The position numbers and the translations under genes were made by a program. Below, one piece after another: positions 7,996 through 56,204 of a stretch of DNA of 64,000 nt. The notes beneath the pieces are model-generated. The model made no database searches, was not told the DNA's origin, and worked only from the letters and a program-made list of their open reading frames with translations. Source of the DNA: Shigella phage SSG23; sequence record PQ351811; one strand, given 5' to 3'. Within the stretch, counting starts at the first letter, position 1, and every line of letters starts with the position of its first letter.

Positions 7996-8732
7996 AAATC
8001 GGCGAAAGGTGAACCCTTGCCATTAATAGGATCAAATGGGTCAATAAAATCTTGTCCTTCGCTTCTGAATTGCTTATCTTCTTTGTACTGATCTAAGTTG
8101 ATATCTGTTAACCCGTCCAGATTAGTGATCGGTGCAAGATCCAGATCCGCGAACTCATCAACATTAATTCCCTCATTGCGTTGTAATTCTGGTCGCAATT
8201 CCTCACCGCTATACACGAATTTCTCTGCAATAATTTTACGCATGGCATTTTTTCCAGCCTGAAAAAACGGCTGATATGGCTCGACGTAATTTATTTCAAA
8301 GAGATCATTACTCATTGGAATATAAATCAAGTCACCTGATTTTGGCTCTTGATCATCTACTTGATGCTTGAATAGGTTGGGGTTAACCGTAAAAGTTAGT
8401 TCATCATTGGCTTGATAACCGAAACTAGAGAAGAAATTACCCGCTCCTTCATACCCATCAAATGAGTTAATATAAGCCGCAAATTTCCATGCTTTAGTAA
8501 ATTTGCTTTGAACATCCTCGCCAAAGATCATGTCTGGTTTGACAAATTCACGAGGGATGTAATATAATTCTACACCTCGCATCTGAATAGCTTCGGCGAC
8601 CATAACGTCGGCTAACGTCTGAGTATTTGTATATTTGTGAAAGTTCACATAAGGATTAAGAATCTCTGTTTGTCGTGTATTCTCATAATCCTTTTGCGAT
8701 TCAAGTCGAGCAAAAAGAGTGTTGTTAAACAT
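7992..8732 (-). CDS. gp14: neck protein gp14
   Basis: 246 aa at gp14 position. Confidence 0.65.
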
Positions 8733-11517: not shown

Positions 11518-12917
11518 TAGCGCACCCTTATGATATAGTTTAATGCCAGACTCTTGACGCGAGTCTCGTTAGCCGTTCTTACGGATCTTCCTGAGTCAAA
11601 GTTAACAGTAGAACCCCAATCATCCCCCTTACCGTTTTTATAGTTCGTGCTCCATTGACCGCGCTGTGCAGTAAATGCGCCACCATACCAACCGCGCCAG
11701 CGGTCAGCTACAGGGAATTTACCAGTAATTCTCTGCATTGCGTCTTCTTGATAAGAACCAAATCGACGGCCTGGATCAAAGTTTCGTCCATGATCGCAAC
11801 CACGAGCAACTAAACCGCGCATATCAGGAAGGTTAAAATTGTTACCTGACCCACCAAAGGTATAACCAATCGCAGAAAATAATTGCGGATATTGATTTTT
11901 ATTCAGTGAACGACCATTACAGATCAGAAAGTCGCCTCGATCAGCATTGAATCCAGAAAGGATAATACCACCAATTGGCATTGCGTGACTCGCTAATTCA
12001 TTTTTAGTAACAAACTGGTTGCCGTCTGAGTTAGAACCTTTATAGACGTTTCCGCTTACCGTACCGCCAGTGCTAGGAAGAACCTTAGCATTTGCTGATA
12101 GTGCAGCGTTAGCCTCACTTCCTACGGTGTCTCGTAGTTTAACAATACCGTATTGAGACGTTGTTGCCTTAGTGCTTGCAAACTTCTTAGCAGAAACAAC
12201 TACAGTATCATCAGAACCAGCATTCATCTGTGACTGGTTGGCGATCTTAACAGTACCCGCCTGATTCTCATTGGCGCGAGCATTTGCAAATGCATAAGGG
12301 CTAATTGCAAAACCTTCTCGAATCTGGCCTTGTAAAACTTGCGCATTGGTTGCTAACTGAACTAAACCTTGTGCGCTTTCGGTTGCTGTGTTTTGCTCTG
12401 GAATTAATCCCGGTACAATCTGTGCAATGGCAGTGTGCATCTTTTTCGGTGTTACTGCCATTGTGTCATCACTGCCAATCTTTGCTGCCTCAAGAGAACA
12501 TATCTTAATAGTCCCCTGAACGCTCTCTGACGCCTTTTTAGTGGTGAAGTAATGGTTTAGTGTGTCTGGACCGATTGCCATGTTCTCGTTGCTCTCTTGC
12601 AGCGATTCTTCCATCGTGGCAAATCGGGTGATGCCCTTTACTTCTTTTGTAGCATCTGGGCGTGACATTTTAACAGCCAGTGTTTTTGGAGTCACGATCT
12701 TATTATCTACAGTACCGTCGTTTACTTCTTCCTGAGTTGCGATTGCAGCGATCCCGGCTGTATCTTCCGTAGCGTCCGGTAATCCATTTACAGCAAAGCC
12801 GTTAATAGCGGCTAAAGCCGCTTGTACGTTGGTAATGCTTTGAGGCCAATCATTTACAGGGTTAAACTTGACGTATTGAGCATCGTCTTTTACGTGGTTA
12901 ATAGTATTGTTTGCCAT
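11517..12917 (-). CDS. gp12: short tail fiber protein gp12
   Basis: 466 aa; C-terminal tail-collar-like motif YPQLFSAIGYTFGGSGNNFNLPDMRGLVARG; position between gp11 and wac. Confidence 0.75.
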   Translation of the reverse strand: MANNTINHVKDDAQYVKFNPVNDWPQSITNVQAALAAINGFAVNGLPDATEDTAGIAAIATQEEVNDGTVDNKIVTPKTLAVKMSRPDATKEVKGITRFATMEESLQESNENMAIGPDTLNHYFTTKKASESVQGTIKICSLEAAKIGSDDTMAVTPKKMHTAIAQIVPGLIPEQNTATESAQGLVQLATNAQVLQGQIREGFAISPYAFANARANENQAGTVKIANQSQMNAGSDDTVVVSAKKFASTKATTSQYGIVKLRDTVGSEANAALSANAKVLPSTGGTVSGNVYKGSNSDGNQFVTKNELASHAMPIGGIILSGFNADRGDFLICNGRSLNKNQYPQLFSAIGYTFGGSGNNFNLPDMRGLVARGCDHGRNFDPGRRFGSYQEDAMQRITGKFPVADRWRGWYGGAFTAQRGQWSTNYKNGKGDDWGSTVNFDSGRSVRTANETRVKSLALNYIIRVR

Positions 12918-12928
12918 TATACATCACC

Positions 12929-13573
12929 TTATGCAATACGTTTGAAATAATATAGGGTAGTTCCAAATTTCTCTTCTGTACCCATTCGAGACCATGAACC
13001 ATAACCAACACGGGCAGGGGAATCAACATTTCCTGTGACTGTAATTCCGTACTTGTTGATATCGGTTGGTGGATGTTCAAGAGAATCGATATAATGAATT
13101 TCTAATTGGTCGTTGCTACTTCCTTTTCTTTTTACTTCCTTGAACATAATGTTTTTATTCATTAGTTCGGTAAATTTTTCCGTTACTTTCTCACATAGAG
13201 AAACGCCGGAAGACCCAACATCAACAATAAATGGATAACCCAAAACATCAATTAATACTTTCTTTGCTTCTGGGTTATGTTGACTATTAACACTTCCTGC
13301 AAATGTTAATGTTTCAATTTGCCCTGCCGATTGTGGTGCAGTTGAATTTGTTGTTACTAAAACGTCACCAATTCGGATCATTGACAATGAATAAAGGTCA
13401 TCAATTGCCGATTGAACGTTGTTTACATAGGAACCTTTTCTTGATTGATCGACATTAACGCCACCAATAGGACGAGAACCACCGATAACAGGATCTTTCG
13501 ATCCTGGATCGTATGAAATAAACGCCGCATCGCTGGAAAATACACTAGCTTTTGAACGTGTTTTCGAAATCAT
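12929..13573 (-). CDS. gp11: baseplate wedge protein gp11
   Basis: 214 aa (T4 gp11 219 aa) at gp11 position. Confidence 0.65.
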   Translation of the reverse strand: MISKTRSKASVFSSDAAFISYDPGSKDPVIGGSRPIGGVNVDQSRKGSYVNNVQSAIDDLYSLSMIRIGDVLVTTNSTAPQSAGQIETLTFAGSVNSQHNPEAKKVLIDVLGYPFIVDVGSSGVSLCEKVTEKFTELMNKNIMFKEVKRKGSSNDQLEIHYIDSLEHPPTDINKYGITVTGNVDSPARVGYGSWSRMGTEEKFGTTLYYFKRIA

Positions 13574-13574
13574 A

Positions 13575-15377
13575 TTAACCTACCCTTAGCCAACGATAGA
13601 CAGTTCTGTATGGAGGAAGAATACCCATCATTGATGGGTCAGTATTTCCCTGATTAACTTTTACGGTATCCTCGCGGTATTTGGTAAATGCTGGACCTAC
13701 TGCATCAGGGTCTACCTGACAACCGCCGATAATAATATTTCCGTTATCGTCTTTTACAAGAACTCGATCGTTGCTCTGTAATTCAGGAATCATATTTTTC
13801 TTGATCTGATATGCAACATCACCACCATTACCACCTGCGGTGTGTGTAGGTTGACCATGTGTATCGAGATCGTTGTTGTTTATTGCGAAGTTTTGATCGC
13901 TTGCATCGGATGACCAACCAGCCAGAAATTCACCTTCCGCATACCGTACCCATGTACCAAATCCCATATAGGTCGCTGGGTTGGCTGGGTTATGCGCATT
14001 TTCATAAATTGTACCTACAGGATGGAAAATGTCGAATATGGAATAGATATCCATCACACGACCTGTATAATCCTCCATTGGACGTTTAGTCGCTTGGCTT
14101 GGATTCAGGAAATCGGTATATTCAATTCGATTTGTCAGAGTAACTTCATCTTCGTTATTGAGATAAATTTTATCTGCTTTCTCTTTAATACCGCCTACAC
14201 CGTCCCATTCCATTAATGTTCCGATATCATTATTAAACCAGCGAATTGTGATAGTGTCTCGGTTATCCAGTGCTTTAGATAATTTAATACCAGTCACTAC
14301 ACTGTTTTCGTCAAACATTAATGAATAATCTTCGCCAGATTCCACCCATTGACCGCCAGCAAGCGCACAAGTTTCTTCTGTTTCGCCATCAGCACCCTCA
14401 CACACAAAAGAAGGTAAATCCGCGTCACCAGCTTTAATCATTTGCGTGCCGTTGATCAGCAATTCAAATGAATTTGGATTAATAAGATCTCGCTTACTTA
14501 CTCCCAATTCAGAATTGGTAAATTCTTTCTTATTCGCAAGTTCCCCAACCCAAACTTCACCGGGGATAGATTCCAAAGTGGTCATTCCGGTTTCATAAAC
14601 TCGGATTGTGTGGGTAATATAACTTGACCGGAAGGATGCGATCCCGTCCATATAAGTGATGATTTGAATGGTATCACCTGCCGAGCAAGGGAAGCGTAAT
14701 TTAATGCTTTTACCGTCCAGTGGGACAATATCACCGTTTTCACCGATAGAACCGTAGTTAGAATCATCGGTCAGATCCTTACCATAATAAAGCAAGTTAC
14801 CGCGATAATATACTTCAACATTTCGAATATTGTAAGTATTGGAACCAAACACATTGGGGAAGTCTGTTTGTCCTTCGGTTGCGATATAAACTTCTTTGGC
14901 GACGGTGCTTAAATCGGAAGTTGTTATAGTGTCAACTCGTTTATTTTCGACATATTCCCACCGACCGGGTGCACAATAAACCAATTCAACATCCATGAAA
15001 TCTTTATATAATTCACGGTTGATTGGCGACCCTTTAATGGTATCACCTTGTGCTGGCTTCAATGTTACGTTATGTGCAGCCCATGAGCGCCAAACATCAC
15101 GAAGTTTAATTGTTTTATTATAATCACTCGCGCTTCCTTTAGGCAATTCAACAGAAACAGCGTTGTTCGTTGTATTAATCGCCCATGCATCACCAAAATT
15201 TGGTTTTAATACTGGTTGTGTGTGAGTTTTCCACGCGCCGGATGCATGAGGGATATCACCATCCCCCAGCTTAGTATAAAGTTCAGAAAAGTTGTCATTA
15301 ATCTTTTGACCACCTTTTCTTAGATAATCACCTGTACCGTCATCAACAACGTTACCGATATTAATTAATTGTTTCAT
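13575..15377 (-). CDS. gp10: baseplate wedge protein gp10
   Basis: 600 aa (T4 gp10 602 aa) at gp10 position. Confidence 0.7.
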   Translation of the reverse strand: MKQLINIGNVVDDGTGDYLRKGGQKINDNFSELYTKLGDGDIPHASGAWKTHTQPVLKPNFGDAWAINTTNNAVSVELPKGSASDYNKTIKLRDVWRSWAAHNVTLKPAQGDTIKGSPINRELYKDFMDVELVYCAPGRWEYVENKRVDTITTSDLSTVAKEVYIATEGQTDFPNVFGSNTYNIRNVEVYYRGNLLYYGKDLTDDSNYGSIGENGDIVPLDGKSIKLRFPCSAGDTIQIITYMDGIASFRSSYITHTIRVYETGMTTLESIPGEVWVGELANKKEFTNSELGVSKRDLINPNSFELLINGTQMIKAGDADLPSFVCEGADGETEETCALAGGQWVESGEDYSLMFDENSVVTGIKLSKALDNRDTITIRWFNNDIGTLMEWDGVGGIKEKADKIYLNNEDEVTLTNRIEYTDFLNPSQATKRPMEDYTGRVMDIYSIFDIFHPVGTIYENAHNPANPATYMGFGTWVRYAEGEFLAGWSSDASDQNFAINNNDLDTHGQPTHTAGGNGGDVAYQIKKNMIPELQSNDRVLVKDDNGNIIIGGCQVDPDAVGPAFTKYREDTVKVNQGNTDPSMMGILPPYRTVYRWLRVG

Positions 15378-16228
15378 GTAGCAACCCCGATTTTAATAGT
15401 GTCTACGGCTTTAACTGCTAAACGAATATTTTCGCCAGTAGCCTTATACTCTGCATATACTTTATCGCCGGAACCGATGAAATAACGAACCGTGTATAGT
15501 TCATCTTCTGTCTTCTGCAAAACTGTATATTCCGTCGCATAAACTTTTCCGGCTTTAGAATCAATCATCAGTAGCGTTTCACTTGAACGCATTTTTGAAC
15601 CGGATATATTGCTAGCGGTAGTTAATAATTTGATGGAAACATATTCTGTTTTTGCGGCAATAGCAACGTTTGTTGCTACTCCAGTTACGTTAACTGTTTT
15701 ATCTAATGGCGTTGTTGTATCGGTAAACATACTTTCGATACCCAATCGCCATGTTACGCGACTACCTTCAACGGCAGTACACCAAACGGTGACTTTTGAA
15801 AATGGTTGTGTTATTGTAGCATCACCGGAATACCCGCTAATAGAATCACCTGCTTGAGTTCGAATATTGAGCGGTGTCGTCGTTGAAAGGCTACCGTTAC
15901 TATTTATGAATACAACACCCTCACCAACCTTTGCTTTAGGGAGGATAGCAATAAGTGCGCCTTGAGTTGTATCGATATCGTGTAGACTCCCAATCTCAAC
16001 AGCGGAACCAGCGTAGCTTTGGCGTGGATGCTTCTGATAGTATCCGGTTGCATGAATAACCATTCTTCCTACACCGTGGTCTACGTCTTTAAACCGTTGA
16101 TCAGCAAATGCGTCATATATTGAATCAAAGTTATCGTTAATTTTATTACCGCCATCATATAAGATATCGCCAGTCGATGGATTGCCGACCGTACCTGTGT
16201 CTATTCTTTTCTTTGGAACTTGTGCCAT
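15374..16228 (-). CDS. gp9: baseplate wedge protein gp9
   Basis: 284 aa (T4 gp9 288 aa) at gp9 position. Confidence 0.65.
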   Translation of the reverse strand: MAQVPKKRIDTGTVGNPSTGDILYDGGNKINDNFDSIYDAFADQRFKDVDHGVGRMVIHATGYYQKHPRQSYAGSAVEIGSLHDIDTTQGALIAILPKAKVGEGVVFINSNGSLSTTTPLNIRTQAGDSISGYSGDATITQPFSKVTVWCTAVEGSRVTWRLGIESMFTDTTTPLDKTVNVTGVATNVAIAAKTEYVSIKLLTTASNISGSKMRSSETLLMIDSKAGKVYATEYTVLQKTEDELYTVRYFIGSGDKVYAEYKATGENIRLAVKAVDTIKIGVAT

Positions 16229-16255
16229 TGTTTAATTCCTCATGTTATGATGTAT

Positions 16256-16263
16256 TATTTATA
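16256..16263 (-). promoter_or_regulatory. T4-type late promoter core TATAAATA upstream of gp9
   Basis: Plus TATTTATA = minus TATAAATA about 28 nt upstream of gp9 ATG, just downstream of the cassette terminator. Confidence 0.5.
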
Positions 16264-16271
16264 AAATACAT

Positions 16272-16300
16272 ACAAAAAAGCCGCCCACAAGGACGGCTTA
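16272..16300 (-). terminator. rho-independent terminator after methyltransferase-like gene
   Basis: Minus RNA hairpin GCCGTCC-TTGT-GGGCGGC followed by TTTTTTGT. Confidence 0.65.
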
Positions 16301-16303
16301 TAA

Positions 16304-17143
16304 TTAAATGTCAAACAAGTCTGAGAGCGTCCCAGACGCTGTTTCTTGTTCTGGTAAGGTAATCTCCTTACTTTCTTCTATTTGTTCGTTAGGACGCGAT
16401 TTAGGCGCTTCTACGGCTTCTTTCTCGTAATACCTAACCTCAACCACTTCTGTTAAAACGTTGGTACTGTGCCATTCATCGCGATAGATTGATGTATCGA
16501 TCCCACATCCGGCATAAGTCACCAAACCAGTTTGTTTGCTCCATTTTAGATATTTATTAGACTTCATTGTTCCGTCATAATAAGGTCTACCGGAATAAGC
16601 AAAACCAGCAGAACCAGCAGGAACAATAAAGTAACCAACATCAGCAAACTTCTGGCCTAATGTCATAACCTTAAATTCAAACTCACCGCCAGTATATTCA
16701 AATACATCCTTTGTGTCGGTTGTATTGATTTTCCCGAAAGGTGGATTGCTAATTACAACATCAAATTTTTCGTTTGATTCAAATTCGAATACATCGCTGG
16801 TGATCCATTCTGCTTCCGGTAATAGTCGTTTACCGATCCGCGCAAATTCTGGATTGAGTTCGACGCATACGATCTTTTCTGGCTTACAACGATGCAACAT
16901 ACAGAAAGATAAACGACCGATCCCAGCACACAAATCTAATACTTTTCCGGTGCAGTGTGCGTCAATGGTAAAATCCCATGCAAGACCCTCTGGAGTAAAG
17001 AATGCACCGGAACCACCTAGACCATCTCCATGATAGTTATTATAGCAAAACTCCTTTTCTTCATATGTCAATGGGCGATCTGAATTGATTAGCTCCATTG
17101 CCCGATCGTGTAATTTTTGTTCTTGTTTGGAAAGTCGTGCCAT
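16304..17143 (-). CDS. gamma-class N6-adenine amino-methyltransferase-like protein (SAM-dependent)
   Basis: 279 aa; FFTPEGL (motif X-like), VLDLCAGIGRL (motif I), VISNPPFG (motif IV, NPPF); inserted between gp9 and gp8. Confidence 0.6.
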   Translation of the reverse strand: MARLSKQEQKLHDRAMELINSDRPLTYEEKEFCYNNYHGDGLGGSGAFFTPEGLAWDFTIDAHCTGKVLDLCAGIGRLSFCMLHRCKPEKIVCVELNPEFARIGKRLLPEAEWITSDVFEFESNEKFDVVISNPPFGKINTTDTKDVFEYTGGEFEFKVMTLGQKFADVGYFIVPAGSAGFAYSGRPYYDGTMKSNKYLKWSKQTGLVTYAGCGIDTSIYRDEWHSTNVLTEVVEVRYYEKEAVEAPKSRPNEQIEESKEITLPEQETASGTLSDLFDI

Positions 17144-17472
17144 TATTTAACCTTTGCTGTTACGGTAACGCTATGCCCCAAATAAACATGAGACATAAAG
17201 AACACAAAGTTTTTAAATTGCGGATTCTTTCGAATAAACCGTTTCAATTTTCGAATACAAGTAATGCTATGGTCATAATTAGAGTAATTAAATTTGATAC
17301 CCTGTTCCATCATCACATTAACTTCATCTTGAGAATGCCACTTCTTATCATGGTCACAAAACCAATAGTTATCATGCCATTTTTCTTGAAGATGCAAGCC
17401 CCAAAACACTTTATACATTGGATGTTTTGGTTTACCCATTGTGTAATGCAGTTTAATATTTACGCGTGCCAT
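17143..17472 (-). CDS. hypothetical protein (His/Trp/Tyr-rich), cassette gene 2
   Basis: 109 aa ORF, start overlaps stop of upstream ORF and stop overlaps methyltransferase start (translationally coupled). Confidence 0.5.
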   Translation of the reverse strand: MARVNIKLHYTMGKPKHPMYKVFWGLHLQEKWHDNYWFCDHDKKWHSQDEVNVMMEQGIKFNYSNYDHSITCIRKLKRFIRKNPQFKNFVFFMSHVYLGHSVTVTAKVK

Positions 17473-17717
17473 TTTCTATCACTCCACATACCGAAAGTTG
17501 GATTATACACAAAATGTATAGCTTCATCAATAGTCTTGAATCGTTTAGTTACGTTAGCGCAATTGATACCCTCCCATAGTTCATCGGTGTAATCGGCTAG
17601 TGATGAATGAGTATGATCGATGAGTTCCCCGATCTTCTCACCGTTCGCGATCACCTCCCAACCGCAAGGGGATACCTGAATTGCTTCACAATTATCTGTA
17701 AATTTACGACGTGCCAT
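17460..17717 (-). CDS. hypothetical protein, cassette gene 1
   Basis: 85 aa ORF with GGAGG RBS, first gene after the minus-strand early-type promoter. Confidence 0.5.
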   Translation of the reverse strand: MARRKFTDNCEAIQVSPCGWEVIANGEKIGELIDHTHSSLADYTDELWEGINCANVTKRFKTIDEAIHFVYNPTFGMWSDRKWHA

Positions 17718-17746
17718 AATTTATCCTCCGTTGTTTATATGTGTGT

Positions 17747-17774
17747 ATTATACCTTACCAAATAAGATTGTCAA
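17747..17774 (-). promoter_or_regulatory. sigma70-type early promoter on minus strand driving the 3-gene cassette
   Basis: Minus strand GGGTGTTGACA, 16 bp spacer, TATAAT, then ACACACAT leader and GGAGG; same architecture as plus-strand early cassettes. Confidence 0.6.
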
Positions 17775-17786
17775 CACCCAAAATAG

Positions 17787-17816
17787 AAAAAGCCAACTCT
17801 CTCGAATTGGCTTTTA
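17787..17816 (-). terminator. rho-independent terminator after gp8
   Basis: Minus RNA hairpin AAGCCAATTCGAGAGAGTTGGCTT followed by TTTTCTATTTT. Confidence 0.65.
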
Positions 17817-17827
17817 AAATCATACAC

Positions 17828-18823
17828 TTAGAACTCAAACAACACAGAAACAAGCTCTGTTTGATCTAATGACCGAACGATAGGTTGTCGGTTTTCCATG
17901 TAGATCATTTCTCCTGAGTGTGGCTCTAAATCCTGTGGTTGATATTTGTCTTTAATCGCTTTAACGTCTGGGTCGCTAGGACGTGCTTTCTTCTCTAATG
18001 GATTAAGGATAATACTTAACTGACGGAAGCCAGTATTACCCACTAACGCTGACGTTGGGAATTGTGCGGAATCCATATAAGCCTGAAAACGCAAAGTTAC
18101 TACTTTCAGCCGATAAAGCAGATTATAGTCATTATACCAGGTGATCACATTGTCATAGCCCCAACGCGCCGGATCTTGTCGCAGTTCATCAGGGAACGGC
18201 ACAACAATATGCTCGTTGGTGCAACGGTTGATCGCCGCATCAGGCGGAATTGTGTACAAATATTCCCAACGATATCCGTCACCCATATCAATAGAATCGC
18301 CTTTCCCTACTGGTGGCGCGATTGATTCATGCGTAGGGGTCCATTTTCCACCCAATTTCAAACACTCTACTTTAGCGTCAATGCTTGAAATAGAACAATA
18401 ACCGCGATCAGGAACATCTGTCACTCGATACACCATCCAACCACTACCAACATCTGTACGGTTATATGGTGCAGAGTTTACGACAACAATGTCATTGATA
18501 AAGAACGTGCGCGGGTTATCCTGTCCGGTATCACCCCAATCTTTACGGGGGATAACCGCATCAAGAAGTGATTTGTTAATCTTAACCGCCCCCATCATAT
18601 GGGTCCACATATCAACAACGCCAGCCGTTGAATCGGTCGGATAAGGTGGGGCAAAGCCCACCTCTTTTTCGTTTTCTGACCACGGCTCCGAACGTCCAAA
18701 CGTTCCATAAATTGTAATTTGATTTGCCCCATCGCCTACAGAATTATAGAAATTCAGAAGTTTTTCTGTTCTGAATTTACTAGTAATGATTGAGCGATAG
18801 ATCACACTATTTTCATTAGCCAT
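17828..18823 (-). CDS. gp8: baseplate wedge protein gp8
   Basis: 331 aa (T4 gp8 334 aa) at gp8 position. Confidence 0.7.
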   Translation of the reverse strand: MANENSVIYRSIITSKFRTEKLLNFYNSVGDGANQITIYGTFGRSEPWSENEKEVGFAPPYPTDSTAGVVDMWTHMMGAVKINKSLLDAVIPRKDWGDTGQDNPRTFFINDIVVVNSAPYNRTDVGSGWMVYRVTDVPDRGYCSISSIDAKVECLKLGGKWTPTHESIAPPVGKGDSIDMGDGYRWEYLYTIPPDAAINRCTNEHIVVPFPDELRQDPARWGYDNVITWYNDYNLLYRLKVVTLRFQAYMDSAQFPTSALVGNTGFRQLSIILNPLEKKARPSDPDVKAIKDKYQPQDLEPHSGEMIYMENRQPIVRSLDQTELVSVLFEF

Positions 18824-21800
18824 TAATTTTCCTCTGTGTCGGATTCTTCGGATCGCGTGGATTCCCTATATTATCCTTCAACCGTTTGTCTACAAGTTCA
18901 CGGAACATAGAGAATGTTACCGCCGACTGGTCAAACAGTGGACTCATTGCAAATCTTCGTTCGCTTGCTTTAAGTCCGTGGAACAATTCGCTGTTCTCCT
19001 GATCATATTCAGGAGGAACCGGAAATTCATCACCAATTAAAGGTGAAGTCAAATATAATGCTTTTCCGGTAAGCGGGTCTTTCTTAATGTTTCCGTCAAC
19101 GTCAAGGTCTGCCACCCGATCAGGATACACGCTAGGCAATCCGCTGTCAAACTTATAGTTTTTCAGAGATTGAATTATAGTCTCGGTGTGCTTCATGCTT
19201 AACCCGCTGTTAATGAACATCGTAAGCAGGGTAACACCGATAAACCCAAAGCCGACAGGATGAACGAATCGCATTACATCATTTGCATAGCGCGAAACTG
19301 GCAATGCACTTTTAATCTTCATGGTGTATTGACTTCGTGAGCGGTTGATATAGTCGATTGAACTACTTAACAACTCTTTACCACGTACACCAACAAGGAT
19401 CATCCCCTCAAACGCTGTTTTCTCTGATTTGATCAATTGACCTTCTTCGAACCGCCCGATCAGGTTATGAATGGTTACTCGCCAGCGTAGGCGACCACCT
19501 TCATATTCCCTTTCAAGATACGTCACGTTAGCCCGTCCGGTTGGAGTATAGATCGTGCGACCTACGATATCCTCGTCAATGTTCGTTGAACTAACAACAA
19601 TATCATACTCTAGTCCGGCTTGTGATTCAACCTCAATTTCCACATCTTCATTATAAAGTAACTTAAACAAGAACTTATAAGAAGCCTCCACGCCCTTAGT
19701 GGAATAAAAATCCGATTTGCGGGATTCAAAGAATCTTACTACCGCATCTCGCTTGTTTTTATCTGCATAGATGTTTCGTTTGTTCATCTCTGACCAAAGA
19801 TACTCATATGCATCTTGCTCGCGTGGGTATTTGTTTTTAATCAGATTTTTTAGTTTATTATAATATGTTCCTGAACCATCACTTAAGAATTGCAGATAAT
19901 ATTCAGAGAATTTTCTGAAATTTTCGTTCTCAAGCAAAAAGCTATCCGGCGTCATCTTATTCAGTAAAGGCCGCAAATCTGGGTCTTGCTCTCTGTCATA
20001 ATGAACAGGAACCCAGGGAACCTCTCGGACCTGATTTTGCAGTTCAGCAACAAATGCAACATTTGTAGGCTTCCAATATACACCAACCTGATCACGAACA
20101 CGATAATTAAATTGATAAAATCCTATGATCTCCCCTGTGTTTTTATGGAACATTACACCGGATGCATATTGTTTGAATCCTTCAAATTTAACATTGTTCA
20201 GATAACAGGTCACTGTCCCCTTATCATAAACCTCTCGGTTAACCCTGTTTTGGTCAAGAATGCCGGAAGTATCAACTTCCTGAGTATAGATAACCTCTGG
20301 ATAAACAACCAACGGGCGATTATCATTTGTGATCCATACACGAACACCGTTTCGACGCATCCATGTATAATCAGCCTCATTATAATATGCTTGTGGTCCT
20401 AACTCCCAGATACGCAAATCATCATAACTTGCTCTGAAAGTCGTTTGATGTATTTTCTTATCAGTTAGATAAGTTGGCTCCTGAGAATATTTTACAGCTT
20501 CGCTTAATTCATATTTCGCGGCTGTTTCTGGATCTGGTAAAATGCTTTCGAAATGATGATTATAATGGCTTATGAACACCTCATCACCGTTTGTTGACAT
20601 ATTACTAAATCCGTGCTGAATATATTCTCTTTCTTGCGGAGTATTACCAAATACACGCTGAAAAGACAGACCATCACTCCCGATTAAGTATACACCCGCA
20701 TCATCTGACGGAACAACGTTTTCTGGTTTGGTCGGATCTTGATAACGCTGTTTAACTTCACCCGTAACAAATACCAGTAATTTTCCGTCAACAACATCCA
20801 TTTTCTGAATAACAGCTTTGTCATTTCCTGTTACTCGGATAATATCAGGGTCAAATATCTTTTCCCCAAATGTAGGCGAACCCTGAACGGTATCAACTGG
20901 AGTATTCTTAAGGCGAATCCGGCGAATAACATCCTTAGCACCAACCCACAAATAGTCATCACTGCACGCCATAGCTTCGGCGTATTTTGTGGTATCACCT
21001 GTTAATCTGGAAAATACACCAAAGACCTCAACATCAAACCCTAAGTCGTTTTCGTCACCAACCTTTGCAAAAGTGATCGTATCATCACTAAATCGAACAT
21101 CGTCCGCGCTCCATCGAGTATCGCTCGCTTGTCGTCCGTAAAAGATTCGGTCATATCCTAAAACGTAAGTAGTGGTTTTAGACTGATAAACGCATGTACG
21201 GGAAACCGGATTGCCTACACGGTCATTAAAAGCCTTGTATGCTTTCCATGATTGACCTTTATCATTTGACACTTTCACGATCGGCTGGAACCGTTCGAAA
21301 AGGTACAAAACACCGTTCATTTCCGCTAACATCGTGCGGTTTATATCAGTACAAACTTTTTCTATGTGGTCCTGTATTTCATGAAAGTTCTCATCAACTA
21401 CAATGTAGTTTGAGATATTTGTCATGTTTGCATATTCAGGGCTAAAGACAAAATCTTCCTTCATCAATGACGCTTGAATCAGGTCAGTATTAAACTTGAC
21501 ATACTCTCTGTTATCGTATGTAAATTTTTCCTTTATAAACTCGTTTGCAAGGTTGAACTCGCGCATCATAGAAAAATTATATGCGTTTGTTTTAAATGTC
21601 TGAAACTCTTCTGTCTCGACCCATTTACTTTGTTCAAATCCTTCTGCGGCTACTGCTACACGAAACTTGTAATAATATTCTGGAAAAAGGTTTTTATCCT
21701 CAAACCAGTTTTGATCGGCAGTATATCCCAGGTTTACCCAGCTTAACTCATCGACGGGGATGATCTCCCCGTCTCGCGTTCTGGTTTCGGCTAACTCCAC

Positions 21801-21902
21801 AAAATAAAAGAAGTTTTCGCCTACGTCATCCCATGTGATATACGCCTGATTAGCAGACAATTTTTCTATTGTCAAGCTAGTTACACTAGGCGCTTTAATC
21901 AT
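18816..21902 (-). CDS. gp7: baseplate wedge protein gp7
   Basis: 1028 aa (T4 gp7 1032 aa) between gp6 and gp8. Confidence 0.8.
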   Translation of the reverse strand: MIKAPSVTSLTIEKLSANQAYITWDDVGENFFYFVELAETRTRDGEIIPVDELSWVNLGYTADQNWFEDKNLFPEYYYKFRVAVAAEGFEQSKWVETEEFQTFKTNAYNFSMMREFNLANEFIKEKFTYDNREYVKFNTDLIQASLMKEDFVFSPEYANMTNISNYIVVDENFHEIQDHIEKVCTDINRTMLAEMNGVLYLFERFQPIVKVSNDKGQSWKAYKAFNDRVGNPVSRTCVYQSKTTTYVLGYDRIFYGRQASDTRWSADDVRFSDDTITFAKVGDENDLGFDVEVFGVFSRLTGDTTKYAEAMACSDDYLWVGAKDVIRRIRLKNTPVDTVQGSPTFGEKIFDPDIIRVTGNDKAVIQKMDVVDGKLLVFVTGEVKQRYQDPTKPENVVPSDDAGVYLIGSDGLSFQRVFGNTPQEREYIQHGFSNMSTNGDEVFISHYNHHFESILPDPETAAKYELSEAVKYSQEPTYLTDKKIHQTTFRASYDDLRIWELGPQAYYNEADYTWMRRNGVRVWITNDNRPLVVYPEVIYTQEVDTSGILDQNRVNREVYDKGTVTCYLNNVKFEGFKQYASGVMFHKNTGEIIGFYQFNYRVRDQVGVYWKPTNVAFVAELQNQVREVPWVPVHYDREQDPDLRPLLNKMTPDSFLLENENFRKFSEYYLQFLSDGSGTYYNKLKNLIKNKYPREQDAYEYLWSEMNKRNIYADKNKRDAVVRFFESRKSDFYSTKGVEASYKFLFKLLYNEDVEIEVESQAGLEYDIVVSSTNIDEDIVGRTIYTPTGRANVTYLEREYEGGRLRWRVTIHNLIGRFEEGQLIKSEKTAFEGMILVGVRGKELLSSSIDYINRSRSQYTMKIKSALPVSRYANDVMRFVHPVGFGFIGVTLLTMFINSGLSMKHTETIIQSLKNYKFDSGLPSVYPDRVADLDVDGNIKKDPLTGKALYLTSPLIGDEFPVPPEYDQENSELFHGLKASERRFAMSPLFDQSAVTFSMFRELVDKRLKDNIGNPRDPKNPTQRKING

Positions 21903-48016: not shown

Positions 48017-48048
48017 GGGCTATCCTTCGGGGTAGCCTTTTTTGTTTT
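48017..48048 (+). terminator. rho-independent terminator
   Basis: Hairpin GGGCTATCCTTCGGGGTAGCC followed by TTTTTTGTTTT. Confidence 0.75.
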
Positions 48049-50805: not shown

Positions 50806-50834
50806 TTGACATGAAAATGCGGTTATCCTATAAT
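50806..50834 (+). promoter_or_regulatory. early promoter cassette P11 (consensus TTGACA-N17-TATAAT)
   Basis: CAGTTGACA, 17 bp spacer, TATAAT, then GAGGATTATATTATG. Confidence 0.7.
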
Positions 50835-51995: not shown

Positions 51996-52424
51996 ATGGT
52001 TTATCCAACTCCTAGTAAGATTTACATTGATGATACCCATTTTATGGTTGATATGATGGGTATAAAGTTTAGTGGTAATGTTAAAATTGTAGAGTGGGAA
52101 TTGCACGGTCAACCTGTCATCGATTATGACCATTACATTCCTTTTTTGGGTGATGACAATTTTGTCTCGTTTGACCATGAAGGTTACATGATCTTTGAAC
52201 AGTCTGACGTACCTTTGTATCTGGCAATGATGCAAATTCCTACGAAGGTTTCTGTTGTTGAGGGTGATTGCGATTGCTGCGGTTGGTATACTGTAACAGA
52301 TATTAAGTTGCCATCCGGTAAAGAACTCTACAACGAAGACCATTTTGGAAACTGTAACTTTCCGTGTGATTGGGATGAATTTTTCGAACTGGTAGAAACT
52401 GAAAGAACTTATTTAAGGAAGTGA
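51996..52424 (+). CDS. hypothetical protein
   Basis: 142 aa ORF after ATGAGGATTATATAATG motif. Confidence 0.5.
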   Translation: MVYPTPSKIYIDDTHFMVDMMGIKFSGNVKIVEWELHGQPVIDYDHYIPFLGDDNFVSFDHEGYMIFEQSDVPLYLAMMQIPTKVSVVEGDCDCCGWYTVTDIKLPSGKELYNEDHFGNCNFPCDWDEFFELVETERTYLRK

Positions 52425-52426
52425 TA

Positions 52427-53239
52427 ATGAAGAAAGTATTAGGTTTAATTCCCTATACTGGCAATAAAGAAAAGTTATTACCGACAATTAGTAAGTATTT
52501 CCCTAAGCACTACAAACGCTTTGTTGATGCCTTTTGTGGTGGCTTGAGCGTGTCTCTGTACGTCGAAGGTGATGTGCTGGCTAATGACTATGATCACCAA
52601 TTAATTGACGCTTACAAGGCCATTGACGAGTGTCCTGATCCGGTTTCTACGATCAAGCGGATTATTGCCGAAAATGGTTTGTCTCGCGAAGATAAAGACG
52701 CTTACATGACATTCCGTAAGAAGTATAACGAGAATCCAGATCCGCTATCGCTGTTTGTGTTGATTCAGCATAGTTTTAGCAACATTAACCGCCATAACCG
52801 GAAGGGCGAATTTAATGCTAATTTTGGTCGCCGGACTTTTAACGAAAACGCGGTAGAGCGTGTCCTGAATTTTAAGGAAGAAAACAAAGACGGTCGAATC
52901 ATTTTTACTTCTGGACGATATGACGAGATCGAGATCTTGCCAGGTGATTTCGTTTATTTGGACCCGCCGTATCTTATCACTTCTGCGGAATATAATAAGT
53001 TCTGGAGTGACGAGGAAGAGATTAAATTCTATCAGTGGGTAGAATCTATTATGGCGCGTGGTTTTCAGTTTGGTATCAGTAATGTCACGCATCATAAGGG
53101 AAAGGTAAATGATCATCTTCTTGACTTTATCAAGCGGAATGATCTAAACTGCGTCCTGTTGAATAAGACCTATTGCCTAGATCGTTCAGGTGGCAAGTCT
53201 TCTGATACGCAAGAAGTTTATGTAACTAACGTAGATTGA
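52427..53239 (+). CDS. dam: DNA adenine methyltransferase (Dam-like, alpha class)
   Basis: N-terminus KKVLGLIPYTGNKEKLLP, FVDAFCGGLSVSL (motif I) and YLDPPY (motif IV), closely resembling T4 Dam. Confidence 0.85.
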   Translation: MKKVLGLIPYTGNKEKLLPTISKYFPKHYKRFVDAFCGGLSVSLYVEGDVLANDYDHQLIDAYKAIDECPDPVSTIKRIIAENGLSREDKDAYMTFRKKYNENPDPLSLFVLIQHSFSNINRHNRKGEFNANFGRRTFNENAVERVLNFKEENKDGRIIFTSGRYDEIEILPGDFVYLDPPYLITSAEYNKFWSDEEEIKFYQWVESIMARGFQFGISNVTHHKGKVNDHLLDFIKRNDLNCVLLNKTYCLDRSGGKSSDTQEVYVTNVD

Positions 53240-55001: not shown

Positions 55002-56180
55002 ATGGCTAAATTCTTTGAAGGTCATTACTATGCATTCCGTGAAGGCGGTAAAGATGAGTTTCTAGACTTTTCTCGCTATTCAATTATTCTGACCGATGCT
55101 TCGCGCCGTGGTCATATTCGAGTTGCTGAAATCGTAGAAAAGGGCTTTAAAGTATTAGAAAAAGATGACCACGGTCATGTTATTACTATTGAAGCTGGAG
55201 ATGTAGTTTATTCCGCTGAGGATATCGTTTATTATTGGTCTACTATGATTATGCACAATGAGCGCAAATACTTTAAACGTATCTCAAAAGAGGCATACGA
55301 AGCGATGAACAAGAAAGAGGATGCAATGCCGACTTACTTTGAAAAAGGTAAATGTTATTCGTTTACCCCAGAAGGTTTGCAAGAATTTAAGCGATTCTGG
55401 GGAGAGCATGACCCAGAACACAAAGAAGCCATGAAACTTGCTGATTTTGTCGAATATGGCTTTTTGGTTGAAGAAGAATTGCACGGATCAGCTACCATGA
55501 TCACCGCGAAAGGTGAAACCGTTAAGGCAGATCGTTTTTGTGATCAATGGGCTTGTGTGTTTGACGGTGGCGAATTTGAATACTTCGCGGAAATCACCAA
55601 CCATCAATTTCATTCTATGCAAGCGGAAGGTCAGCGATTTAAAGTAGGCGAACGCTACAAGCCAAATCAGCATAATTTGCCTCATTGGTTTAACACTGAA
55701 ACCGTATCCAGCCATGTTATTGAAATTGTTCAAAAGCTGGAACATGGATTTAAGGTAACTAAAGTAGATCCTTTCGGAAGTGTTGACGCGGTTGAAGTTG
55801 ATGGTGTAGAATATACTCCCAAATCTTTCGGGCTTTGCTGGTATCATCTGATCAGCAATGATGAACGTTATAACTTTGTTGAACTGCCATCTGAACCGGA
55901 AGAAGCACTAGAGGATCATGATCATCTATCTGAACTGGTTAAGCTGTTTGGTGATCTGCCGGATGGTGTAGGGGTGGCGGTAATGGGTGAAGGTGCGGTT
56001 ATCCGAAACCTGAAAGACTTTAAAAAGTTCTTGATTGACATGCTGCCTAAACTTGATGATAATCTCGATACAGATATTCAGAATCGCAAAGAAATTGTTA
56101 AAGAGACTGAAAAAGAGATCGAAGCGATTCGAGCAATTCGCCAGAAGGTGAAAGCAGTAAAGAAAAAAGTTCGTGCTTGA
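55002..56180 (+). CDS. hypothetical protein, paralog family A member 3 (internally repeated)
   Basis: 392 aa; repeats of the family A domain (FEGHYYAFREG...GFKVLEKD..., NERKYFKRISK, ...GFKVTKVD...); C-terminal coiled coil. Confidence 0.55.
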   Translation: MAKFFEGHYYAFREGGKDEFLDFSRYSIILTDASRRGHIRVAEIVEKGFKVLEKDDHGHVITIEAGDVVYSAEDIVYYWSTMIMHNERKYFKRISKEAYEAMNKKEDAMPTYFEKGKCYSFTPEGLQEFKRFWGEHDPEHKEAMKLADFVEYGFLVEEELHGSATMITAKGETVKADRFCDQWACVFDGGEFEYFAEITNHQFHSMQAEGQRFKVGERYKPNQHNLPHWFNTETVSSHVIEIVQKLEHGFKVTKVDPFGSVDAVEVDGVEYTPKSFGLCWYHLISNDERYNFVELPSEPEEALEDHDHLSELVKLFGDLPDGVGVAVMGEGAVIRNLKDFKKFLIDMLPKLDDNLDTDIQNRKEIVKETEKEIEAIRAIRQKVKAVKKKVRA

Positions 56181-56204
56181 CATGCGAAGGGAGTATGCTA
56201 TAAT
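56177..56204 (+). promoter_or_regulatory. early promoter cassette P14 (extended -10, palindromic)
   Basis: GCTTGACA, 16 bp spacer, TGCTATAAT flanked by GGGAGTAT/ATACTCCC. Confidence 0.65.

Follow-up and report, generated by a model that had tools for sequence, protein, structure and literature searches.

Among the T4-like phages, the closest described relatives of the locus considered here are the promoter-early stem-loop (PeSL) elements and the ligands of the clamp gp45. The PeSL class was defined in phages RB49 and phi1 by Arbiol, Comeau and Krisch in 2010; there are about 50 copies per genome, mostly ahead of ORFans in hyperplastic regions, and they were reported to be strong sigma-70-like promoters with effective terminator stem-loops, which were proposed to mediate modular shuffling (PMC2839356). 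The PeSL ORFan cassettes of RB49 and phi1 were also covered by Comeau in 2014 (PMC4122927). In T4 and RB69, gp45 is bound by the C-terminal ends of gp43, gp55 and gp33, epitopes that can replace one another and that are attached through unstructured linkers of divergent sequence; a crystal structure of the RB69 clamp with a peptide is cited in the same review (PMC2988020). Here we describe a stretch of 64,000 nucleotides (nt) from Shigella phage SSG23 (record PQ351811; hereafter the window, to which all positions refer unless another record is named). Its baseplate genes gp8 and gp9 are separated by a three-gene cassette, and both the cassette and the baseplate genes are read on the minus strand. 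The last of the three open reading frames (ORFs) codes for a 279 aa methyltransferase (ORF279, 16304-17143) whose C-terminus resembles that of gp43.

As an enzyme, ORF279 is best introduced by comparison. First, it differs from the gamma-class adenine methyltransferases (M.TaqI, HsdM, the Eco57I family, MmeI and the MADS protein Mad2) in that its core is short, at about 240 residues, and lacks a separate target-recognition domain, it has no partner restriction or specificity subunit, and identity is only 13-20%. Second, like T4 Dam and the other phage orphan adenine methyltransferases, it is an orphan phage enzyme with a presumed role in pre-methylation against restriction, but it has the gamma rather than the alpha/D12 arrangement and no sequence similarity to Dam. 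Third, mammalian DNMT1 is likewise a DNA methyltransferase with a short clamp motif, a PIP box for PCNA, that couples methylation to replication (PMC9690074); DNMT1, however, is a eukaryotic cytosine-5 maintenance enzyme with an unrelated sequence and clamp, whereas ORF279 would be an adenine-N6 orphan of phages and mobile elements. Our search of the literature outside subscription journals found no DNA methyltransferase, from phages or from bacteria, that carries a clamp-binding motif, the known analogue being the eukaryotic DNMT1-PCNA pair (PMC9690074). The cassette type and a generic annotation of the gene are already public; what is new here is the clamp-like tail, the most informative feature of the locus and one that the original prediction, made from the nucleotide sequence, had missed. 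We consider it probable that the locus is a PeSL-type early cassette encoding a clamp-tethered orphan DNA adenine methyltransferase that acts on replicating phage DNA.

The C-terminal tail and its likeness to clamp ligands

ORF279 consists of a catalytic core (residues 1-240, 16424-17143), with two N-terminal helices followed by a Rossmann fold, an acidic, proline-rich and apparently disordered linker (residues 241-269, 16337-16423), and a terminal peptide, SGTLSDLFDI (16307-16336), which we propose to be a gp45 clamp-binding motif on account of its likeness to the end of gp43. In the AlphaFold2 (AF2) model the predicted local distance difference test score (pLDDT) falls below 50 over residues 245-271. 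The methyltransferase ends in TLSDLFDI, and gp43 of both RB49 and Shigella phage SFHK24 (PQ351812) ends in ASLTDLFDI, so that the last five residues are identical (methyltransferase ETASGTLSDLFDI, gp43 EKVASLTDLFDI). Among the ORFs of 60 aa or longer in the window and in 12 kb of the SFHK24 replication region (255 in all), DLFDI was the only C-terminal pentapeptide common to two.

The linker differs in both sequence and length among relatives whose cores are 65-70% identical, yet the end motif is kept, as TLTDLFDI, GSLSMFDI or TLDFVDFSEI. Such a combination is what selection on a short linear motif would be expected to leave. More distant T4-like versions show the same arrangement of a variable linker and a short hydrophobic/acidic end, namely KSDLFTFTIE in Slopekvirus and QENFTFRIE in Phynn. 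In the sampled regions of Miro (Slopekvirus) and Phynn, such C-termini occur, among real genes, only on gp43, gp33, gp55 and the methyltransferase. For comparison, RB49 gp55 (L014 27531-28064) ends in SLDQFYEIEN and RB49 gp33 (L016 42695-42964) in TNTLDI. The end of the RB49 gp30 DNA ligase (L016 24126-25622), ...VKEVFDV, is also loosely clamp-tail-like. The methyltransferase tail has, at the level of sequence, every property of a gp45-binding epitope: a short hydrophobic/acidic extreme C-terminus, a variable unstructured linker and, in Krischvirus, a last pentapeptide shared with gp43. What sets it apart from gp43, gp55 and gp33 is its carrier, as methyltransferases are not among the gp45 ligands listed in a review of T4 late transcription (PMC2988020), and binding is in this case predicted.

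The resemblance extends to the nucleotide level: the last 18 nt of the methyltransferase gene (16304-16321) match the SFHK24 gp43 gene (L017 6177-6194) at 17 of 18 positions (GACYTGTTTGACATTTAA), a match that gene conversion, or capture of the tail from gp43, may explain.

To the extent that the match is a recent gene-conversion patch rather than a product of selection, it would favor a different reading, in which ORF279 is a DNA adenine methyltransferase whose tail resembles gp43 by chance or as a relic of recombination, the enzyme being a free, untethered orphan like T4 Dam. The same reading could draw on the nearest bacterial and prophage homologues (53-61% identity), which stop right after the core and work without a tail, and on the tails of Slopekvirus and Phynn (DLFTFTIE, NFTFRIE), which are only loosely like those of their own gp43 (DLFGDW, DLFDF). 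We nonetheless regard it as fairly unlikely, given the retention of the end motif where the linker is wholly different and the core only 65-70% identical, the restriction of DLFDI to gp43 and the methyltransferase among the 255 ORFs, and the independent and strong enrichment of canonical beta-clamp motifs at the C-termini of distant members of the family.

The last of these points comes from a search with the family profile against 1.84 billion representative proteins, which returned 1060 clusters with an E-value of 1e-3 or less, 348 of them at E <= 1e-30. Tails were surveyed in the best 146 full-length representatives with a mutual identity of no more than 50%, of which 89 extend at least 10 residues past the core. 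Typical endings are SQLSLFDAA, EQLTLF, SQLALF, PQLSLFA and QQLDLFGGAR, and the bacterial beta-clamp-binding consensus is QL[S/D]LF or QxxLF (PMC12309361). The pattern Q[LF]x[LMF]F was present in the last 12 residues of 18 of the 146 proteins, compared to a mean of 0.02 (at most 1) upon shuffling of the last 30 residues, and in none of 3136 internal windows. Likewise, the looser Q-phi-x-phi-[FL] was found 24 times against 0.3 expected, and a phi-F pair in the same stretch 53 times against 12.6 expected.

Members with the QLxLF-type ending come from Pseudomonas and Kitasatospora genomes and from phage-sized contigs of 40-50 kb. One lies on a temperate-phage contig of about 50 kb with a portal protein, an S24 repressor, RusA and DnaB; in the 20 kb of it that we inspected, the DnaB helicase is the only replication gene, with no polymerase or clamp seen. 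Another lies on a Pseudomonas mobile island. From these sequences, the tail appears to track the clamp with which the element replicates, and for this reason it would furnish independent evidence both for the tail as a clamp ligand and for DNA as the substrate. Whether this holds for the whole family we judge to be an evenly balanced question: phages, prophages and mobile elements might share a large and hitherto unrecognised family of orphan DNA adenine methyltransferases that are recruited to the replisome by a C-terminal clamp peptide, exchanged to match the clamp. Under this proposal, elements replicated by the host machinery would carry QLxLF for the beta clamp, and T4-like phages with a clamp of their own would carry a gp43-like peptide for gp45.

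The methyltransferase core and its substrate class

The three motifs from which a gamma-class N6-adenine methyltransferase had originally been proposed, FFTPEGL, DLCAGIGRL and NPPFG, are all present in ORF279. They correspond to motif X (GAFFTP, residues 46-51, 16991-17008), motif I (16910-16936, with CAGIG as residues 72-76) and motif IV (residues 133-137, 16733-16747), arranged in the order X, I, IV that distinguishes the gamma-class. Across 37-41 homologues GAFFTP, CAG-G and N-P-x-F-G are invariant, and the second proline of NPPFG is at least 90% conserved. The AF2 model, built with 37 homologues, has a mean pLDDT of 83, mostly above 90 in the core, and shows a class I Rossmann methyltransferase fold. 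Its best structural neighbours are all N6-adenine methyltransferases, and its viral neighbours beyond its own family, including the best viral match, are DNA-methylase modules. Thus, the proposed fold, motif order and motif conservation are borne out, as is the claim that the enzyme is distinct from the Dam-like protein of the same phage: the latter is a D12-class Dam (52421-53239) to which ORF279 is unrelated, without sequence similarity. Dam also has no clamp-like tail, the RB49 version ending in ...VYVTNVD.

ORF279 matches PHROG 3820 ('DNA methyltransferase') at 2e-117, and many public records already carry that annotation. Among Pfam models it exceeds the cut-off for the generic MTS (38.6 bits against 23), Eco57I (28.4 against 25.3) and Methyltransf_25, and falls below it for N6_Mtase (16.7 against 20.4). 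The DNA methyltransferase models of PADLOC match from 5e-17 (mad2) to 1e-9 (Type II methyltransferases), in alignments that begin at residues 35-46 and therefore take in the GAFFTP motif X. In a jumbo-phage member from Dickeya phage JA29 (BFVD A0A384ZXJ6, P0130, 389 aa), the core is fused to the C-terminal part of the N6/N4 DNA methylase PF01555; this fusion and the viral DNA-methylase neighbours are two further links to DNA. The bacterial homologues in Citrobacter and Salmonella stand alone at the edge of prophages or prophage remnants, and we accordingly rejected the idea that they are parts of restriction-modification systems.

Judged by its modelled fold only, the protein is roughly as close to DNA as to rRNA adenine enzymes, and METTL5, which makes N6-methyladenosine (m6A) in rRNA, is as near a neighbour as the DNA enzymes. 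It could be argued, then, that the 279 aa protein is an RNA methyltransferase (forming m6A or N2-methylguanosine in rRNA or tRNA, in the manner of METTL5, RsmC or TrmN) that reprograms host translation and whose tail serves another purpose. The best PDB sequence matches are indeed the small RNA methyltransferases PH1948 and RsmC, there are weak NCBIfam matches to RsmC and TrmN, the protein is small and without a recognisable separate target-recognition domain, the homologue in phage phiM7 lies near genes for a CCA-adding enzyme and a peptidyl-tRNA hydrolase, and the depositors of RB49 noted a similarity to rRNA guanine-N2-methyltransferase. We consider this unlikely, however. All of the NCBIfam matches are far under their cut-offs and cover motifs I-IV only (RsmC NF007023 scores 29.2 against 295 bits), while the DNA methyltransferase models also align the region of the GAFFTP motif X. 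Moreover, a clamp motif would be senseless on an RNA enzyme, yet the 18 representatives end in QLxLF and the Krischvirus tail is that of gp43.

Similar reasoning bears on the label 'release factor glutamine methyltransferase', which the gene carries in Ec_Makalu_002, E26, ECD7, kaaroe and other records. A protein glutamine methyltransferase of the PrmC/HemK type would account for the motif of NPPY/F type and for the top NCBIfam match, TIGR03534 PrmC, at 1.7e-9. That match, however, reaches 37.5 bits where the curated cut-off is 199.1, and is confined to residues 64-137; the invariant GAFFTP motif X falls outside this stretch, yet is aligned by the DNA methyltransferase models, and the clamp-motif argument applies equally. 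We therefore hold a PrmC/HemK identity to be highly improbable. The GenBank PrmC label and the rRNA note of RB49 are unsupported as family assignments because the matches involve only motifs I-IV at scores far below the cut-offs. The better-placed assignment remains that to DNA: ORF279 is most likely a replisome-tethered orphan DNA adenine methyltransferase, with its DNA substrate, target sequence and clamp binding as predicted attributes.

A PeSL-type cassette in the baseplate operon

The minus-strand order at the locus is gp7 (18816-21902), gp8, the cassette, gp9 and gp10 (13575-15377). The late gene upstream of the cassette, gp8 (17828-18823), is a baseplate wedge subunit (Pfam Phage-Gp8, 8e-144; PHROG 977), and the late gene downstream, gp9 (15374-16228), is a baseplate wedge/tail-fibre connector (Pfam T4_gp9_10_N, 1.5e-40; PHROG 967). 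The anatomy agrees in full with what had been described from the sequence. After gp8 comes a stem-loop and T-tract terminator (17788-17815), a 12-pair hairpin followed by TCTATTTTGG, which forms the stem-loop half of the PeSL; the upstream 60 nt fold as RNA at -17.3 kcal/mol. The promoter half (17747-17783) comprises the conserved TTTTGGGTG, TTGACA, a 16 nt spacer and TATAAT, a 12/12 match to the sigma-70 consensus. The TTGACA-16-TATAAT at 17774-17747, preceded by GGGTG, is the sole 12/12 match between 13 and 22.5 kb. The three ORFs of 85, 109 and 279 aa are followed by a second intrinsic terminator (16278-16299; 9 pairs, 6 of them G-C, then TTTTTTG) and by an exact T4-type late promoter, TATAAATA, ahead of gp9 (16256-16263).

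With its own sigma-70 promoter and flanking terminators, the unit is thus self-contained, as had been claimed. Perfect TTGACA-N15-18-TATAAT sites number 6 in the window against 0.14 expected, that of the cassette being the only one on the minus strand, and the TTTTGGGTGTTGACA box is present in 6 copies (with at most 2 mismatches) against 0.17 expected. The architecture is also shared with plus-strand early cassettes, since the sites at 48045 and 58671 have the same layout of hairpin, T-tract and GGGTG. Three further perfect sigma-70 promoters, all on the plus strand (8539-8568, 50806-50834 and 56177-56204), are without an upstream PeSL hairpin and GGGTG box; therefore, this phage has at least two flavours of early promoter. 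RB49 and GEC-3S show no change in either hairpin or in the -35 and -10 hexamers, and differ in the spacer between the latter; this is, on comparison of these sequences, the pattern predicted by selection on promoter function. Taken by itself, TATAAATA is no commoner in the window than chance predicts (5 copies against 6 expected), but RB49, GEC-3S and two of the uncultured relatives, L023 and L025, have it at the corresponding position. The depositors of GEC-3S independently annotated the same sigma-70 promoter and both terminators.

These features place the hairpin-promoter unit, by its sequence, in the published PeSL class: a terminator stem-loop stands directly upstream of a consensus sigma-70 promoter, the repeat is shared within the genome, and it precedes ORFans in a slot whose content is swapped or empty in relatives. 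Like the RB49 and phi1 cassettes, it combines a stem-loop and then a sigma-70 promoter, the shared TTTTGGGTGTTGACA box, downstream ORFans and ORF swapping. It differs from them in lying in a conserved virion module rather than a hyperplastic region, in being fixed across the genus and present in distant uncultured relatives, and in carrying a conserved enzyme gene. The original prediction had called such a module in a late structural operon unusual; the siting is indeed the less common case, but the architecture is of a known kind and a few PeSLs within virion modules had already been recorded (PMC2839356). Promoter and terminator activity have been measured for other PeSLs (PMC2839356).

The 1.85 kb around the cassette is 100% identical in SFHK24 and 91-96% identical in 56 other Krischvirus records (RB49-like 'pseudo-T-even' Straboviridae), the cassette being found in 57 of 58 records of the genus. 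The sole record with less than 80% of the query region covered is MW748999 (phage Skers, 154.8 kb), where the first 65 methyltransferase residues alone remain (12828-13599) with a terminase annotation adjoining; this is probably an assembly break. Outside the genus, the gp8-gp9 gap is 63 bp in the T4-type RB55 and 9 bp in Tulanevirus, whose gp8 is the closest outside Krischvirus (69% identity), and neither has the cassette. Comparison of these gene orders upholds the view that the cassette is an insertion between gp8 and gp9, and none of the outcomes named in advance as counting against the original prediction was encountered. Homologues of the methyltransferase lie between gp41 and gp61, a region of replication genes, in Slopekvirus (Miro) and Phynn, and in still other contexts in Aeromonas, Sinorhizobium and GAP32 phages.

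Uncultured relatives also have the methyltransferase between gp8 and gp9, with gp8 81-88% and the methyltransferase only 65% identical, and keep the order of signals: hairpin, sigma-70 promoter, gene(s), hairpin and TATAAATA. Because location and signals are shared, the insertion is older than the sampled genus. The slot ahead of the methyltransferase has no ORF in L023 (ENA k99_236053) and L024 (k119_1741), and an unrelated 154 aa ORF in L025 (k141_245145). As the cargo differs while the methyltransferase stays, the enzyme is the fixed component and the promoter-proximal slot turns over. With regard to a compositional signal of transfer, the small ORFs are slightly AT-richer (0.35 compared to 0.40-0.45), with nothing more seen, and an Rfam search of the intergenic regions of the cassette gave no structured-RNA match near threshold.

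In the phages of the genus the slot is filled by two ORFans of variable occurrence, ORF85 (17460-17717; PHROG 16603, function unknown) and ORF109 (17143-17472; PHROG 12630, function unknown). ORF85 and ORF109 overlap by 13 nt (ATGGCACGCGTAA), and ORF109 and ORF279 by 1 nt, the A of TAATG. Neither small protein has a match in Pfam, NCBIfam or PADLOC, and among 5.8 billion proteins ORF85 forms 1 cluster and ORF109 5 clusters. ORF85 is confined to Krischvirus and a few Vequintavirus genomes, and ORF109 has two allelic forms in Krischvirus, one at 97% identity and the other at about 73%. For ORF109, the AF2 model is of low confidence (pLDDT 54) and unusable for a fold search. In the Vequintavirus (rV5-like) phage FV3 (JQ031132 12851-13425), the pair is adjacent and overlapping at about 69% identity, within an array of small early-type genes and without a methyltransferase; from this occurrence, the two ORFans appear to travel together as a module between phage families that are unrelated. 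No trace of either protein was found by tblastn in four phages that have the methyltransferase elsewhere. The small ORFs had been described as unrecognised partners of the enzyme: unrecognised they are, but we rejected the partnership, as they occur without a methyltransferase in FV3, do not stand beside it in other phages, and give way to another ORF or none in relatives. We treat them, on these distributions, as independent ORFan cargo.

Two further observations concern these genes. The original RB49 record splits the ORF85 homologue into two short ORFs (ORF140w/141w, L002 2861-3107), and as the tblastn match is likewise broken in two, a frameshift or an error in sequencing is suggested. The three cassette ORFs and gp9 share the start ATGGCAC (17717, 17472, 17143 and 16228), giving Met-Ala-Arg or Met-Ala-Gln, and an MA(K/R) N-terminus is conserved across the whole methyltransferase family; this is possibly a preference linked to translation initiation.

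A proposed role on replicating phage DNA

We propose the following sequence of events. Host sigma-70 RNA polymerase would start at the PeSL promoter right after infection, transcribe the two ORFans and the methyltransferase, and stop at the downstream hairpin, while the upstream hairpin would end the gp6-gp8 late transcript and the TATAAATA late promoter would restart transcription for gp9-gp10. Early transcription would supply the enzyme by the time replication starts; in T4, gp43 and gp45 also belong to the early gene products. The product would be a compact S-adenosylmethionine-dependent N6-adenine methyltransferase of gamma order, with a disordered acidic linker of about 30 residues before TLSDLFDI. 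Its polymerase-like tail would tether it to gp45 clamps on replicating phage DNA, where it would methylate adenine N6 in nascent DNA. Krischvirus DNA, like that of RB49-like phages in general, carries ordinary cytosine and is without the hypermodified-base shield of T4, and because of this the purpose is most likely to be protection from host restriction or other defences that read methylation.

Several considerations weigh against this proposal. Both methylation and clamp binding are predictions from sequence and a model. METTL5 is structurally as close as the DNA enzymes, the best PDB sequence matches are RNA methyltransferases, and a separate target-recognition domain is not recognisable; the tails of Slopekvirus and Phynn resemble those of their own gp43 only loosely, and the nearest prophage homologues have no tail. 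Our literature search found no transcript data for RB49-like phages, so that we infer the early timing, and no methylome data for Krischvirus. Furthermore, high-performance liquid chromatography with mass spectrometry of the Krischvirus TB34 gave no detectable modified DNA (PMC13390438). As that study listed only cytosine derivatives even for T4, N6-methyldeoxyadenosine at a low level may have gone unscored in TB34 (PMC13390438).

The same study reported glucosyl-methyl-dC in Krischvirus SAP and none in TB34, although the two are 99.96% identical and have no known pathway genes, a difference its authors left unexplained (PMC13390438). As far as can be told, it is unrelated to the cassette.

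Little is understood of how RB49-like phages, which are in wide use in therapeutic cocktails, evade restriction. If the proposed role is correct, a clamp-riding methyltransferase would couple protection to DNA synthesis and thereby settle in a simple way the kinetic contest of methylation with cleavage, and the gp45 and beta-clamp 'tool-belts' would gain a new kind of client. The locus also illustrates that a PeSL cassette can become permanently fixed in a core late operon while its cargo slot turns over. The family is large and occurs in numerous phages and prophages, with enterobacteria, Pseudomonas and actinobacteria among the hosts. If its members are recruited by clamp peptides as suggested above, they would represent a prokaryotic and viral counterpart of DNMT1-PCNA, and this would explain how a phage methylates its DNA quickly enough to outrun restriction during rapid replication.

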